From the IMG/VR virus record IMGVR_UViG_3300043172_000590, positions 13,827 through 77,826 of that record: a DNA stretch of 64,000 nucleotides. One strand, written 5' to 3'. Source of the stretch: a virus. Made by a program: the position numbers and the translations under genes. The notes beneath the pieces were generated by a model. It did no database searches. It was not told where the DNA came from and saw only the letters and a program-made list of their open reading frames with translations. Positions 2,728-53,194 of this stretch are shown here, in pieces (position 1 is the stretch's first letter; every line of letters starts with the position of its first letter).

Positions 2728-4518
2728 ATGAAAAGAGAATTGACAGAAGCAGCCAAGGCAGCCAAGGCAATAAGAACTGAGTTAAAAGAGGAATTTCCGG
2801 GAGTTAAATTCTCGGTTAAGTCGTCCAATTTTTCAATGGGAGACAGCGTCCACATATCCTATGTTGATGGACCGTTAACAAAAGATGTAGTAATCATCAC
2901 AGGTAAGTATCAGCAGGGACATTTCGACGGAATGACAGATATGTATGAGTATTCCAACAGCAGAGACGACATACCTCAAAGCAAATACGTACAAGTTGGT
3001 CGCACCATGTCAGCAGAGACGAGGGATGCGATATGGAAACATCTACAGGAGACGTTGACCGGATGCGAGGGCAAGGATATTGAGTCTCTTATTCCTGAAT
3101 GGAACCAGTACGGATCACATTTAACCTACCGTGTATTTTCAGAGACTAACTACTATACTGAGCCTGAAAAGAAAGAGTTATCCGCATCTACCGTGGAAGG
3201 ATTAGATTTTGAAATGGAAAAAACAGTGCACACTAAGAAGGGGCACGACGTCTGGGTAGCTAAATCATCTACCCGTGTCGGCAAAGATGAGTTCAGGGAC
3301 TTGCTGGACTGCGCTAAGATGCTGGGAGGGTACTACTCTTCGTACAGTAGAGACGGAGCAGTGCCAGGTTTTCAGTTTAAATCAGATGAGGCATGCAGGG
3401 AGTTTGTAGCTAAATGTAGTAGCGAGACAAAAGAGCCGGTCGATAACACTATTGAGACATCAACAGTAACATCGAAGACGACAACAAAGAAGTCCGATGT
3501 AAAAAATGAGGTAATGGCTGCTAAGTGGCAGAAGCTTTCTGATTCATACAGAAACGAGAGCGACAAGCTGTATGACAGGTTGAAGAATGCGCAGACCAAT
3601 ACACCTAAGCGGAACAGGGAATATAATTCCAAGAAAATTGATGCTGATATATTGAGTGATGTATCTATTCTTGCTCATGGTATTGCATTAGGATACGAGG
3701 ATGGGACTTTAGCCGAAGAGTTAAAAGTATTGCAGCCAATTAAAAATAAAAGACAACTAATGATGTTTGTCCCGGGCCATGCTAATACCGGTGGATACTA
3801 CGACGCCTTTAGAGACACCGTTCCGAATTACAAAAGGAATGGCAATATCACTGCTGGATTAAATGATGTGGGTATTGAGACTGAGGCGCAAGCGGATAAG
3901 ATACTGGAATTATTGAGCGCATTGGATAATACAAGCTCAGCGGAAAAAGAGAAGAGAAAAAACGAGGACAGGATTAAGCAGTTGGAGGATAATTTTAAGT
4001 TTCAGAAAATCAAAGGATTCTTCCCTACCCCTCTCGATATGGGGCGTGAAATGCTGAGCAGATTGGGAATAACAAACGGGCAAACTATATCTGATCCATC
4101 TGCAGGGCTTGGGCATTTAGCTGCGATTGTCAAGGAAGAATATCCAGACAACACACTGAAAACATTTGAGATAAGACCCGCTCTCTCGGAAATCCTAACA
4201 CTCAAAGGATTCGATAATACGTGCGCCGACTTTCTTGAGTGCGATGAGAAATTTGATAGGTTTATTATGAACCCCCCATTTGAAAACTCACAGGATATTG
4301 ACCACGTTCGTCATGCGTACTCGTTATTAAACGATGGCGGCAGGATTGTATCTATCATGGGGTCTGGCACATTTCACAACTCTTCCAAAAAACATAAGGA
4401 GTTTCAAGCGTGGATTGACGAGATTGGCGCCGAGTATGAAACAAATCCCGAGGGCTCATTCAAGGGAGCATTTAAAAGTACAATGGTTGGCTCCTGTATA
4501 GTTGTAATTGATAAATAA
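2728..4518 (+). CDS. polyvalent protein: N-terminal LPD29-like domain plus C-terminal N6-adenine DNA methyltransferase
   Basis: N-term AKAIRTELKEEFPGVKFSV...GHFDGMTDMYEY; C-term FFPTP, DPSAGLG (motif I) and IMNPPF (motif IV). Confidence 0.85.
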   Translation: MKRELTEAAKAAKAIRTELKEEFPGVKFSVKSSNFSMGDSVHISYVDGPLTKDVVIITGKYQQGHFDGMTDMYEYSNSRDDIPQSKYVQVGRTMSAETRDAIWKHLQETLTGCEGKDIESLIPEWNQYGSHLTYRVFSETNYYTEPEKKELSASTVEGLDFEMEKTVHTKKGHDVWVAKSSTRVGKDEFRDLLDCAKMLGGYYSSYSRDGAVPGFQFKSDEACREFVAKCSSETKEPVDNTIETSTVTSKTTTKKSDVKNEVMAAKWQKLSDSYRNESDKLYDRLKNAQTNTPKRNREYNSKKIDADILSDVSILAHGIALGYEDGTLAEELKVLQPIKNKRQLMMFVPGHANTGGYYDAFRDTVPNYKRNGNITAGLNDVGIETEAQADKILELLSALDNTSSAEKEKRKNEDRIKQLEDNFKFQKIKGFFPTPLDMGREMLSRLGITNGQTISDPSAGLGHLAAIVKEEYPDNTLKTFEIRPALSEILTLKGFDNTCADFLECDEKFDRFIMNPPFENSQDIDHVRHAYSLLNDGGRIVSIMGSGTFHNSSKKHKEFQAWIDEIGAEYETNPEGSFKGAFKSTMVGSCIVVIDK

Positions 4519-4525
4519 TAGGCAT

Positions 4526-4903
4526 ATGAACTACAGAAAAGAATTAGAAGACTTAGAGAAAAAGATATCTAACAGGTTCAATGATTTGACCGACAGATAC
4601 GACTCCCATAATTTCCTATCGCCTCTATTTGAAGTGCATACAATACTTACCGATGAGGAGATGATAGAGGCACTGGAAGAAAAGAACGAACTCGACTCCC
4701 TTCCTCGAATAGAGGTATATACTACCTACGGTGATGTATTTGACATCTTCGTTACCTCTGTTATTGGGAAGGACATTTATGGAGTGGATGTGGAAGAAAC
4801 GGACTCCGACAAGACTGCAAGATTTACTAACATCACATCCACATTATCCCGCATAAATCTGATTGAATCCATGATTAAATTAAAAGGTATTAAAAATGAG
4901 TAG
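4526..4903 (+). CDS. acidic hypothetical protein
   Basis: ORF following the MTase; ATG at 4526 preferred over the TTG start at 4508. Confidence 0.6.
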   Translation: MNYRKELEDLEKKISNRFNDLTDRYDSHNFLSPLFEVHTILTDEEMIEALEEKNELDSLPRIEVYTTYGDVFDIFVTSVIGKDIYGVDVEETDSDKTARFTNITSTLSRINLIESMIKLKGIKNE

Positions 4904-13458: not shown

Positions 13459-13887
13459 TTAGAGTGGTAAATCATTTTCACTATCATTTTCTTCTGTAAT
13501 TTCAGACATTGACTGATCTCTTATTTCATCCTCGTCTTCCTCACTCATTACCCTCACCTTTCGTCCTTCAAGGATTTCTACTCTGTGCCACGACTCTACA
13601 TGAGTGGCAACAAACCATGTCTTAGAACCATCCTTTTTTATGAAATATCTTCTTTTTACTGCACCTTCTATCAGTAGATGTGTACCGGGTGTTATATATT
13701 TTTCTATAAGGTTCTTTGCCCTACTTCCCCATACCGCAATCTCAACCCATTCCGTAGCCTTACTCCTACCGTCCGTGGTTGCTATCTGAAACTTAGCGAT
13801 AGTATTAGCCTTTATTTTCCCTCTCTTCTTTATATCTATTATAGATATGTGCCTGCCAACGAATCCAGTAACTATGTGCCTATTCAT
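13459..13887 (-). CDS. ssb: single-stranded DNA-binding protein
   Basis: N...V.GFVG, TEWVEIAVWG, G..LLIEG, acidic tail ending DLPL. Confidence 0.85.
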   Translation of the reverse strand: MNRHIVTGFVGRHISIIDIKKRGKIKANTIAKFQIATTDGRSKATEWVEIAVWGSRAKNLIEKYITPGTHLLIEGAVKRRYFIKKDGSKTWFVATHVESWHRVEILEGRKVRVMSEEDEDEIRDQSMSEITEENDSENDLPL

Positions 13888-48189: not shown

Positions 48190-48253
48190 ACACACAAAGT
48201 AAGATTATACAAACTTAAATTCCAAGCACTTTGGGAAATATTGCATATCTTTG
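48190..48253. promoter_or_regulatory. divergent promoter region (late operon leftward, small genes rightward)
   Basis: TATCTTTG on + (48246-48253); TTGG-N20-TACTTTG on -. Confidence 0.45.
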
Positions 48254-48274
48254 GATATAAAAACAATTTCAGAT

Positions 48275-48541
48275 ATGCCACAAGCAGGACTAAGAAGGAC
48301 CGCCAGATATTATAGGTCACACCCTCTGGCAAGAAAAAAGAAAAAGGAATACGATACTAAGTATCATAGATCTCCTGAGCGAAGGAAATACAGATCTAGG
48401 CTTGGATCTATGAGAGCTAAAAGAGGATTGAAAGGTGATGGTCGGGACTTGTCTCACAATAAAGATGGGAGCGTGTCACTAGAAAACAAATCCACTAATA
48501 GGGCAAGAAATGGAGCAAATGGAAGAAGTTCGAGGAAATAA
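48275..48541 (+). CDS. very basic protein with a degenerate HNH-like C-terminus
   Basis: GDGRDLSH.......E..S.NRARNG; lies next to the packaging genes. Confidence 0.6.
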   Translation: MPQAGLRRTARYYRSHPLARKKKKEYDTKYHRSPERRKYRSRLGSMRAKRGLKGDGRDLSHNKDGSVSLENKSTNRARNGANGRSSRK

Positions 48542-48716
48542 AAACCCTTGCGACGGGAAAGATGTGTCGTGGATTGCTCTTGATGAAATCGCGATGGGAT
48601 TTCGGAGGACAAAGGCAAGGTGGATGATTGAAAACGAAACAAGACTTGATGGTGCTGCGGTAATGGAGGGTTTAAGTATTTCTTCCGAGGACATTGAGGC
48701 ACTCGAGAATATCTAG
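48510..48716 (+). CDS. hypothetical protein
   Basis: 68-aa ORF before the terminator. Confidence 0.45.
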   Translation: MEQMEEVRGNKNPCDGKDVSWIALDEIAMGFRRTKARWMIENETRLDGAAVMEGLSISSEDIEALENI

Positions 48717-48748: not shown

Positions 48749-48791
48749 CAAAGCCCGATAAGACATGATTCTTACCGGGCTTTGCGTTTTT
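48749..48791. terminator. terminator at the convergence point
   Basis: CAAAGCCCG.TAAGA...TCTTA.CGGGCTTTG followed by TTTTT. Confidence 0.7.
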
Positions 48792-48806: not shown

Positions 48807-49427
48807 CTACAACTCTAATCCGTCAGCAGTCGGTTCTATTTTTGTGTTTTCAGGATTGTAGCTTTCTGGATAAGGATTAGGCTCGTTAAGCCTCTTTAGA
48901 TCCATTCCGAGCCACATGATAGATTCCTGTAGTTTAGTTATAGCTAAACTGCGCGCTCTTGACGAGGGGCATTTTTTGATGTTTTGTAATTGGTCATCAA
49001 GGCCTTGTCTTAATAATTTATTTGCCTTGACATCTTTCTCCATGTGCTGGCCCGCAACCATATCCATATTGAAATCAAACAAACTGCGCACATCTAATGC
49101 CCTAACGATAGATATAAACAATGCGTCTTTCGCTTGCTGCTCTTTTGGTAAGTCTTCGTAAGGAACAATACATGGGTGTTCTTGTTTGACCGGATCTTTA
49201 ACCTCTCCGCAAACCCAGCCATTAGCAATCTTTTCTTTCATCCAGTTATTGTGGCTGTCGCAAGATTTGGAATTGGGGTTTTGAAGATGAAACTTAACAC
49301 CATTAATGGCGCTTTCCTTTTGCCATTCAGGGGCATCCTCCCATGAAGACTGGGTGTCATCTCCAATACTTTGACAATACGCCCTGTTTACTTCATGGCA
49401 CACTTTAGCAATCTGCAATACATTCAT
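48807..49427 (-). CDS. RyR-domain plus Acb2/Tad1-like hairpin domain fusion (putative anti-defence protein)
   Basis: HNNWM.EK...GW..G.VKD...K.HPCIVPYEDLP.EQQAKD; SRARSLAITKLQESIMWLGMDL. Confidence 0.75.
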   Translation of the reverse strand: MNVLQIAKVCHEVNRAYCQSIGDDTQSSWEDAPEWQKESAINGVKFHLQNPNSKSCDSHNNWMKEKIANGWVCGEVKDPVKQEHPCIVPYEDLPKEQQAKDALFISIVRALDVRSLFDFNMDMVAGQHMEKDVKANKLLRQGLDDQLQNIKKCPSSRARSLAITKLQESIMWLGMDLKRLNEPNPYPESYNPENTKIEPTADGLEL

Positions 49428-49446: not shown

Positions 49447-49887
49447 TTAATAAGCCTGCCCTTTATCGGGCAAGTCTTCTGGTTTTACATATACCGGAAC
49501 CGGCTCCTCCCATGAGTTGTGCCCGTTCCTAAAACAATTCATATATTTTCCTGCGAGATAAACCGTTTCAAGTCCAACCTCGGTTTTCTTTATATTTAAC
49601 TCTCCATGGACTATCGCAGTATCCTTGACTGCTACCCGCTTATTGTCGATACCTTCTCTTAGTATCTTCTTTGCCTCTCCTTGAAAATAGATGGTAAAAA
49701 TGTCATCGCTCTCCGGCCCTGTTCTATCTCTCGTGTAATCAATCAGCCTCAACCTTACTTCGATGTATGACGCCGTAACTGTCACCTCATCTATTTTTCC
49801 CACAAGCATGAAACTTCTGTCCGGATTTATTGCCGGAGCAGGATTTAGCATACTATATGCTGCGTGGGTCCTTGGCTTCTTAGGCAT
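49447..49887 (-). CDS. OB-fold/SSB-like protein
   Basis: FMLVGKI...IFTIYFQG.A.......V.V.D.AIVHGEL pattern. Confidence 0.5.
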   Translation of the reverse strand: MPKKPRTHAAYSMLNPAPAINPDRSFMLVGKIDEVTVTASYIEVRLRLIDYTRDRTGPESDDIFTIYFQGEAKKILREGIDNKRVAVKDTAIVHGELNIKKTEVGLETVYLAGKYMNCFRNGHNSWEEPVPVYVKPEDLPDKGQAY

Positions 49888-50271
49888 TTTGGAGTATTCC
49901 GCCCTTCTCTAATAACGATTCAACCAGATTCCAATCAACATAGGGTTTCCCCTCCTTTTGGTGTATTAAAGGAATGCCCAGTGCCGCATCATCTATATAC
50001 ATCTCTGCATAGCACTTATTGGAGCTTGTCCAATGTTCTTGCCCAATATCTTTCTGGATTGAATACAAGGCAATGTTATTCTCCTTAAACCAATTAACAG
50101 CATCGGTCAATACGTTTCCGAGTTTTTGTCCATCGCTCCGCATTGTGTATAAAATAAGCTTATGCCTTGTTTTGTCAATTTTCTCAATACAGGGATTGCT
50201 CCTATGTCTGCGCCAACTTTTGGGAATTCATGTTTTACACAAGTTCCATCAAAATCAATTGCTATCTTCAT
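49880..50271 (-). pseudogene. HAD-superfamily phosphatase split by a 1-nt frameshift near 50165
   Basis: MKIAIDFDGTCV.HEFP from ATG 50271; LYTMRSD...K.YA.MYIDD in another frame; the two ATGs are 128 nt apart. Confidence 0.8.
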
Positions 50272-52447: not shown

Positions 52448-53194
52448 TTAAAAGGGGTTTTTATTAAAGTCAATAGATACTCCTCTATCTGCAACGGTAA
52501 CTGTTTTTCCGGTCAAGTCCTCTACTTCTTTTTTGAACCTTTCTTCATCCGAATTGTAATCTGATAAGTGGATCAGTACTACGTTGTTGACCCGTGACAA
52601 GTCATTTGCTGACAATAATTCTTTGCAGGTCTGGATACTCATATGTTCGTATGCCTTCTTGAGTACCTGTAATTCCATCTCGTCGCCCATCATCTTCTTT
52701 TCTACGATATCCTCACAGTAATTAGCCTCCACGAGGACTTGGTTTAGCCCATCAAACCTAAACTCTGAATACCTTGTGTCTGTAAGGAATAATACTACTC
52801 CACATTCTGGGTGGCGGATCAAGAAACCTAAAGGCTCTTTAGCTTCGTGTATGGTGTCGAACGGGATGATTTCAAATTCCCCTACCTTAAACTCGTTCCC
52901 ATCGCTAACCGGCCTTGGCGTGTTGTACGGATTTCCCTTTATTTCGATGCTGTCAATTGTTCCTTGGCTTGCGAATGCGGGTATTGACGTGTATAACATA
53001 TACTCGTTTATATATGCAGAATGATCAGAATGGCAATGGGACCAGATAAGCCCGACCACACTGGATAGATCAAACTCTAACACTTTCTTTACCTCCAATA
53101 ATTTAACCCCACATTCGATGATTAGCGTCTCTTTATTCCCCTTGAGAAGATAGCAATTCCCATGACTCCCAGATGCTAATACGTGTAGCTTCAT
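52448..53194 (-). CDS. metallo-beta-lactamase-fold hydrolase (YycJ-like nuclease)
   Basis: LASGSHGNCY, SHCHSDH, TDT, EANY, LIHLS. Confidence 0.9.
   Translation of the reverse strand: MKLHVLASGSHGNCYLLKGNKETLIIECGVKLLEVKKVLEFDLSSVVGLIWSHCHSDHSAYINEYMLYTSIPAFASQGTIDSIEIKGNPYNTPRPVSDGNEFKVGEFEIIPFDTIHEAKEPLGFLIRHPECGVVLFLTDTRYSEFRFDGLNQVLVEANYCEDIVEKKMMGDEMELQVLKKAYEHMSIQTCKELLSANDLSRVNNVVLIHLSDYNSDEERFKKEVEDLTGKTVTVADRGVSIDFNKNPF

Follow-up and report, generated by a model that had tools for sequence, protein, structure and literature searches.

The gene at positions 48807 to 49427 of the analysed window, a 64,000-nucleotide stretch (positions 13,827 to 77,826) of the IMG/VR virus record IMGVR_UViG_3300043172_000590, encodes a protein of 206 residues. 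A first-pass annotation had described it as a RyR domain fused to a sponge domain of the Acb2/Tad1 type, and had suggested that it binds and/or degrades more than one immune second messenger. The locus therefore raises the question of whether one small phage protein can counter two kinds of immune signal, and which signals these would be. Phage RyR anti-Thoeris proteins, the Acb2/Tad1 hairpin, and the fusion of two sponges in one protein are already known; what is new is the RyR-hairpin combination, and no description of a phage fusion of RyR to an Acb2/Tad1 hairpin was found in the literature. A parallel in design is Acb4-Sequestin (Pseudomonas phage Ab09 gp59), in which anti-CBASS and anti-Thoeris sponge modules are likewise carried by one phage protein, but both of its modules come from families unrelated to RyR and to the Acb2/Tad1 hairpin.

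The virus record is complete, with 77,826 bp and direct terminal repeats, and a genome search finds the fusion gene in single copy. The large terminase shares just 24–26% identity with its matches, the terminases of Cellulophaga, Flavobacterium, and Maribacter phages, and these matches point to a marine Bacteroidota bacterium as the probable host. The fusion gene is the last of a run of minus-strand genes, and the plus strand over the same positions is full of stops. The gene and its parts are laid out as follows.

48807..49427, minus strand: the whole gene for the 206-residue RyR-hairpin fusion (from the ORF list), with an ATG start and the stop codon at 48807–48809.
49095..49427, minus strand: residues 1–111, a RyR (Repeat12-like) domain of four helices that is predicted to bind cADPR, with key residues H59, W62, K77, H84, K100, and D101.
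49056..49094, minus strand: residues 112–124, a variable linker; in stand-alone hairpin proteins its counterpart is the 'FDF..DM' segment at the N-terminus.
48888..49055, minus strand: residues 125–180, a helical hairpin of the Acb2/Tad1 type, with helices 125–151 and 157–179.
48810..48887, minus strand: residues 181–206, a conserved non-helical tail (NEPNPYPxSYNPxNxKIEPTADGL.L).
48749..48784, minus strand: a terminator-like hairpin that starts 23 nt past the stop codon; its stem of 15 bp precedes U-rich UUUGAAACCUUU.

The terminator-like hairpin has a folding energy of -26.1 kcal/mol (z = -6.9 against shuffles) and probably marks the end of the transcription unit of the fusion gene; it is absent from the list given by a consensus terminator scan. 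Just downstream of it, between minus-strand blocks, two small plus-strand ORFs occupy 48251–48716. They encode 96 residues, very basic in composition, and 68 residues, and neither has a Pfam match.

The N-terminal half is a RyR domain, as had been claimed for residues ~1–112. Pfam assigns residues 56–101 of the full protein to RyR (PF02026) with E=7e-11 (42.7 bits against a cut-off of 27.4), the match reaches 43.7 bits in the genome search, and the motifs quoted earlier for this domain, SHNNWMKEKIANGW...KQEHPCIVPYEDLPKEQQAKD, are present in the protein. A sequence search of the PDB with this half returns the Repeat12 domains of RyR1–3 and a RyR protein of Bacteroides thetaiotaomicron. The AlphaFold2 model of the full protein has been built on 42 homologues and has a mean pLDDT of 89.5. 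In this model the RyR half consists of helices 3–20, 34–49, 55–68, and 95–111 with pLDDT values of 92–98, and Foldseek matches it to 6uhi, 3nrt, and 9l91 with a probability of 1.00.

The link between RyR domains and nucleotide-signal conflict, also part of the first-pass annotation, is supported by work on RyDEP and RyR Tad. Two 2026 preprints have described a phage RyR family that neutralises Thoeris cADPR signals (PMC13232231; doi 10.64898/2026.06.04.730250). The glycosidase RyDEP, encoded by mycobacteriophage DyoEdafos, cleaves 2'/3'cADPR with the catalytic dyad H75/D117. Among eight phage homologues of RyDEP that have been tested, six bind 2'/3'cADPR without cleavage, two show no binding, and none cleaves. 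RyR Tad (gp68 of Pectobacterium phage vB_PatP_CB1) acts as a sponge in dimeric form and binds 1''-3' gcADPR with a Kd of 43 nM. Its ligand binding needs H129/W132, K147/H154, and K170/D171, and its RyR region by itself inhibits type I Thoeris. The known RyR sponges are plain dimers with no hairpin scaffold (all from PMC13232231; doi 10.64898/2026.06.04.730250).

The RyR half of the fusion protein is 52% identical to Pectobacterium phage CB1 gp68 over 106 residues (124 bits). The gp68 pairs H129/W132, K147/H154, and K170/D171 align with H59/W62, K77/H84, and K100/D101, so that all six validated 3'cADPR residues are kept, and the predicted four-helix fold is the same. Each of these six residues is also kept in 40–42 of the 42 fusion homologues. 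The two proteins differ in domain order. In gp68 the RyR domain is C-terminal, follows an inactive beta-sheet N-domain, and belongs to a dimer, whereas the fusion protein starts with it and continues into an Acb2/Tad1 hairpin, which is expected to drive higher-order assembly. The RyR-hairpin architecture is absent from all nine RyR proteins tabulated in the RyDEP study.

The RyR half could in principle be an enzyme instead of a sponge. It would then act as a RyDEP-type inverting glycosidase that converts 2'/3'cADPR to ADPR, while the hairpin sequesters trinucleotides. The RyDEP residues H75, W78, H100, and D117, which include the catalytic dyad, have their equivalents in H59, W62, H84, and D101 with identical spacings of 3, 25, and 42. 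The same residues are, however, found in sponge homologues without catalytic activity, so enzyme and sponge are not separable by sequence, and cleavage has been seen for none of the eight DyoEdafos RyDEP homologues tested. In addition, the 124-bit match to RyR Tad compares with 31 bits for PDB chain 35tm_A (139 aa), whose length and residue spacing lead us to infer that it is RyDEP. Since the RyR half is much closer to RyR Tad than to RyDEP, a sponge is favoured over an enzyme, and the combination of an enzyme with a sponge appears improbable.

The C-terminal half had been assigned to the Acb2/Tad1 family, and this assignment also stands, with Pfam scores that lie around the cut-off. The Acb2_Tad1_hairpin family (PF24729, cut-off 27) scores 25.0 bits on the full protein and a marginal 27.0 bits, equal to the cut-off, when residues 125–206 are scanned alone; in the genome search the score is 26.8 bits, or 27.1 with the neighbours in frame. 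The stand-alone relatives of this half match the family in 30 of 30 cases (best E=5.5e-9). When a profile of the stand-alone family is compared with the PDB, CmTad1 (8kbb) is reached at E=8.6e-6, other Tad1 chains at ~0.3, and Acb2_43 at 0.66, while no PaMx33-type Acb2 chain is reached at E<=10. In the models, the two helices of the hairpin are long and antiparallel (pLDDT 87–98).

The motif quoted for this half, SRARSLAITKLQESIMWLG, is present and aligns with CRENAMAITKLQECLMWLG in helix alpha2 of CmTad1. Residues R157, T164, K165, Q167, E168, M171, and W172 correspond to CmTad1 R88, T95, K96, Q98, E99, M102, and W103. R157 is found in 41 and T164 in all of the 42 homologues, with the same R-x6-T spacing as Acb2 R67/T74, and K165, Q167, E168, M171, and W172 are each kept in 40–42 of the 42. 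Position 158 is an alanine in the fusion protein as opposed to a glutamic acid in 40 of the 42 homologues. The tail at residues 181–206 is modelled as coil with pLDDT values of 46–75 and has no aligned counterpart in Tad1; its residues N184, P185, Y186, P187, S189, T200, A201, and D202 are near-invariant in the fusion and the stand-alone proteins.

Fold comparison adds little to this assignment. With the isolated C-terminal model, Foldseek against the PDB returns no match at E<=0.001, and Tad1 chains appear only at E values of ~1.4–4, amid unrelated hairpins. A wide VIA-align search with the same model gives Z scores of ~8–9 to many unrelated two-helix hairpins. The structural check that had been suggested therefore does not settle the nature of the C-terminal half, since unrelated chains by the thousand match a two-helix hairpin. 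Because a two-helix hairpin is too simple for fold comparison, the homology of this half rests on sequence profiles.

The conserved residues have known roles in the relatives. In CmTad1, each phosphate of cA3 or cAAG is gripped jointly by R88 and by T95 of the neighbouring protomer. The trimer-of-dimers hexamer of CmTad1 is built by R88, T95, K96, Q98, E99, M102, and W103, and interface mutants are dimers that have lost trinucleotide binding (PMC10680739, PMC10312549). The equivalent pair in PaMx33 Acb2 is R67/T74, and the R67A mutation abolishes cA3 binding. On the other hand, T4 Acb2 with an engineered arginine still does not bind cA3, which indicates that pocket geometry matters, and cA3 binding is not universal among Acb2 homologues, even in the presence of one residue of the pair (PMC10680739, PMC10312549).

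The earlier description of the C-terminal half as an Acb2/Tad1-like sponge holds in part: the trinucleotide and hexamer residues are kept, but neither Acb2 nor Tad1 is present in full. The CbTad1 gcADPR residues F82, N92, R109, and R113 are replaced by I150, R159, D176, and L180. There is no helix between the linker and the hairpin in the model, and stand-alone relatives of 78 residues begin at the hairpin. Since no counterpart of the Y11/K26 helix of Acb2 is recognised in the sequence, and both the beta-sheet domain and the gcADPR residues of Tad1 are lacking, binding of cGAMP or gcADPR by this half is not predicted, although a dinucleotide pocket of another build may be present. Judged by its sequence, the C-terminal module is a member of the hairpin family that is neither Tad1 nor a canonical Acb2.

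In comparison with Tad1 (CmTad1 8KBB-8KBD; CbTad1 7UAV, 8KBE-8KBH), the hairpin is homologous, and the R/T pair and the QExxMW interface are identical. The predicted logic is also common to both, with a cADPR module placed on a hexamerising, trinucleotide-binding hairpin in the same order, ligand domain first. However, the N-terminal beta-sheet domain of Tad1 is absent, the cADPR module is the unrelated, all-helical RyR fold, and a tail of 26 residues has been added. With Acb2 (PaMx33 Acb2; Acb2_43, PDB 9PTQ), the fusion protein has the PF24729 family and the R-x6-T clamp in common, and its stand-alone relatives are Acb2-sized. The N-terminal Y11/K26 helix, with which Acb2 binds cyclic dinucleotides, has no recognised counterpart, and the conserved C-terminal tail is the module's own.

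The ability of the hairpin to self-associate has been modelled. A three-copy model of residues 125–206 gives an ipSAE of 0.63, while the best of three controls reaches 0.26. This ipSAE mark was attained in calibration by 20 of 30 proteins solved as one-chain pairs and by 1 of 23 solved as single chains; the three-copy job differs from this calibration in its three copies and in the use of our own alignment. Contacts agree by at least 68% between the runs, the partner pLDDT is at least 63, and the confident interface consists of residues 156–176, the Tad1-like motif. This result may reflect the likeness of the module to the solved Tad1 and Acb2 hexamers and is no independent proof of assembly.

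The same data bear on another reading, a sponge for a single signal. Here the RyR domain would be the sole ligand module, for cADPR, and the hairpin would only multimerise the protein, raising its avidity or stability. The conserved hairpin residues (R, T, K, QE, and MW) are the builders of the Tad1 hexamer, and selection for assembly would suffice to keep them. Because the Arg/Thr pair of Tad1 also serves hexamer formation, its conservation is no proof of trinucleotide binding. Moreover, the three-copy model backs self-association alone, and some Acb2 homologues do not bind cA3, even with one of the Arg/Thr pair. This reading has to be set against the wide occurrence of the hairpin-plus-tail as a stand-alone protein of ~80–95 residues, which must have a function of its own, since it is abundant without any partner domain; for the known family members this function is signal sequestration. 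It is also at odds with the known RyR sponges, which work as plain dimers without such a scaffold. We regard a purely structural hairpin as a possible explanation, though not a probable one.

The abundance of the hairpin is seen in the database searches. The full protein has 1284 matching proteins, and its C-terminal part has 1599 matches among short proteins, mostly of 78–100 residues, with identities of up to 91%, so that the matches far exceed what chance would give. The highest identity is to a stand-alone protein of 94 residues (P0121), which covers the C-terminal 82 residues of the fusion protein. In the best 80 viral loci of IMG/VR, the hairpin module is unfused in 76 and fused in 4, and no separate RyR gene lies within 4 kb of the unfused hairpin genes in these 76 loci. 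The stand-alone hairpin-plus-tail family (proteins P0121-P0240 in loci L004-L082) has the near-invariant tail NPYPxSYxPxN..PTADGLKL. It appears to be uncharacterised. Among cultured phages, the stand-alone protein was found only in Bacteroidota phages (Tenacibaculum, Bacteroides, and crAss-like), and it is annotated as hypothetical in all of them.

The stand-alone proteins also explain the linker. The first-pass annotation had taken a Met-rich linker, FDFNMDMVAGQHME, as a sign that two once-separate genes were fused, and the alignments agree with it: this segment aligns with the N-termini of P0121 and other stand-alone hairpin proteins (P0122, P0123, and more). Because of this alignment, the sequences indicate that the fusion captured a complete stand-alone hairpin gene. 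The linker has a pLDDT of ~70–75 in the AlphaFold2 model. Among the fusion homologues, identities are 47–67% in the RyR domain, 49–80% in the hairpin, and 62–81% in the tail, and fall to 0–28% in the linker. The linker region also holds three in-frame Met codons, M121, M123, and M129 (49059–49067 and 49041–49043), at the place where the stand-alone homologues start. It is a speculation that internal initiation at these codons could supply the hairpin as a separate protein, which would then assemble together with the fusion.

The fusion is not confined to this virus. About 40 protein clusters have the same RyR-plus-hairpin Pfam architecture, with 47–67% identity, and several are on contigs of 75–82 kb. 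A related protein is encoded by the N4-like roseophage Sulfitobacter phage phiCB2047-B. This RyR-plus-hairpin protein of 188 residues (AGH07415.1, at 3986–4552 of locus L001) is 40% identical over 178 residues, is without the conserved tail, adjoins thymidylate synthase, and is annotated as hypothetical. Phage phiCB2047-B would be a convenient cultured system for testing the fusion architecture.

The genes around the fusion are wholly different between loci, including four other viral loci and phiCB2047-B. Such varied neighbourhoods fit a mobile accessory gene, as is often the case for counter-defence genes. In the window, Pfam and PHROG assign the neighbours to a split HAD-like gene (phrog_1238), an Rv2179c-like 3'-5' exoribonuclease, an MBL-fold protein, an HNH/NUMOD4 endonuclease, and RecT. 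It had been suggested that the HAD phosphatase and the DEDDh nuclease form one nucleotide-handling cluster with the fusion gene. A dedicated cluster of this kind is rejected, as none of these neighbours adjoins the fusion in the four other viral loci or in phiCB2047-B.

Two of the neighbours have features of their own. The HAD-like gene (49880–50271, minus strand; annotated as 'phosphoheptose isomerase') falls into two ORFs that overlap and lie in different frames, of which 50107..50271 (54 aa) covers profile positions 23–72 and 49880..50143 (87 aa) covers 69–139. A frameshift, programmed frameshifting, a pseudogene, or an assembly error could each account for the split. The MBL-fold protein (248 aa, 52448–53194, minus strand) was considered as a homologue of Apyc1, an anti-Pycsar protein, but this is not supported: its faint match to the Pfam model reaches 18 bits, below the cut-off of 50, and the PDB holds no sequence match.

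For the function of the fusion protein, the reading that we favour by analogy with the characterised relatives, and consider somewhat better than an even bet, is a hexameric sponge with two kinds of site, in which the RyR domain binds 2'/3'cADPR and the hairpin core binds cA3 or cAAG. The RyR module would hold 3'cADPR and 2'cADPR in a pocket formed by H59, W62, K77, H84, K100, and D101, and would act like the sponge-type RyR Tad and the RyDEP homologues H4 and H7. Through the hairpin module, protomers would gather about a three-fold axis and form a hexamer like those of Tad1 and Acb2. In its axial pockets, R157 from one protomer and T164 from the adjacent one would grip the phosphates of cA3 and cAAG. 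The RyR domains are proposed to pair on the two-fold axes, as they do in RyDEP and RyR Tad. Each hexamer would then have six cADPR sites and two trinucleotide sites, which is the stoichiometry of Tad1, with the RyR fold standing in for the Tad1 beta-sheet domain. Its production during infection would weaken both Thoeris and those CBASS systems that signal with trinucleotides.

A role outside defence has also been considered, in which the protein would be an accessory protein that binds nucleotides or metabolites, for example as a sensor of ATP or ADP-ribose. Repeat12 domains of animal RyRs bind ATP and drugs, B. thetaiotaomicron has a cellular RyR-domain protein of unknown role, and two of the eight tested phage RyR homologues do not bind cADPR signals. 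Yet both modules come from families whose characterised phage members all bind or degrade immune signals, and every validated ligand residue is conserved. We therefore hold such a role to be very improbable.

The two-site sponge may also be part of a broader scheme. In this extension, the hairpin-plus-tail would be a portable, hexamerising, trinucleotide-binding cassette that Bacteroidota phages join to varied ligand domains. In the present fusion, the strictly conserved tail (NPYPxSY...PTADGL) would join with the 'FDF' segment of the linker to make a further pocket on the two-fold axes, much as Acb2_43 has a pocket formed by a beta-strand. One hexamer would in that case capture three kinds of signal: cADPR isomers, cyclic trinucleotides, and another ligand, for example a cyclic dinucleotide or His-ADPR. 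We offer this extension as a doubtful, tentative idea.

By analogy with the known RyR and Tad1 sponges, the fusion is probably a single protein of 206 residues that disarms Thoeris and CBASS at once. If this is confirmed, it would mean that phages have rebuilt the Tad1 design, with six cADPR and two cyclic-trinucleotide sites per hexamer, from interchangeable parts. The Acb2/Tad1 hairpin would then be a modular cassette for assembly and binding, and the new RyR counter-defence family would extend to multi-signal inhibitors. The large family of stand-alone hairpin-plus-tail proteins, with its 1599 database matches, is flagged as a set of candidate sponges. Confirmation would also offer a way to study how the phages of marine Bacteroidota, a barely tested group, evade immunity.
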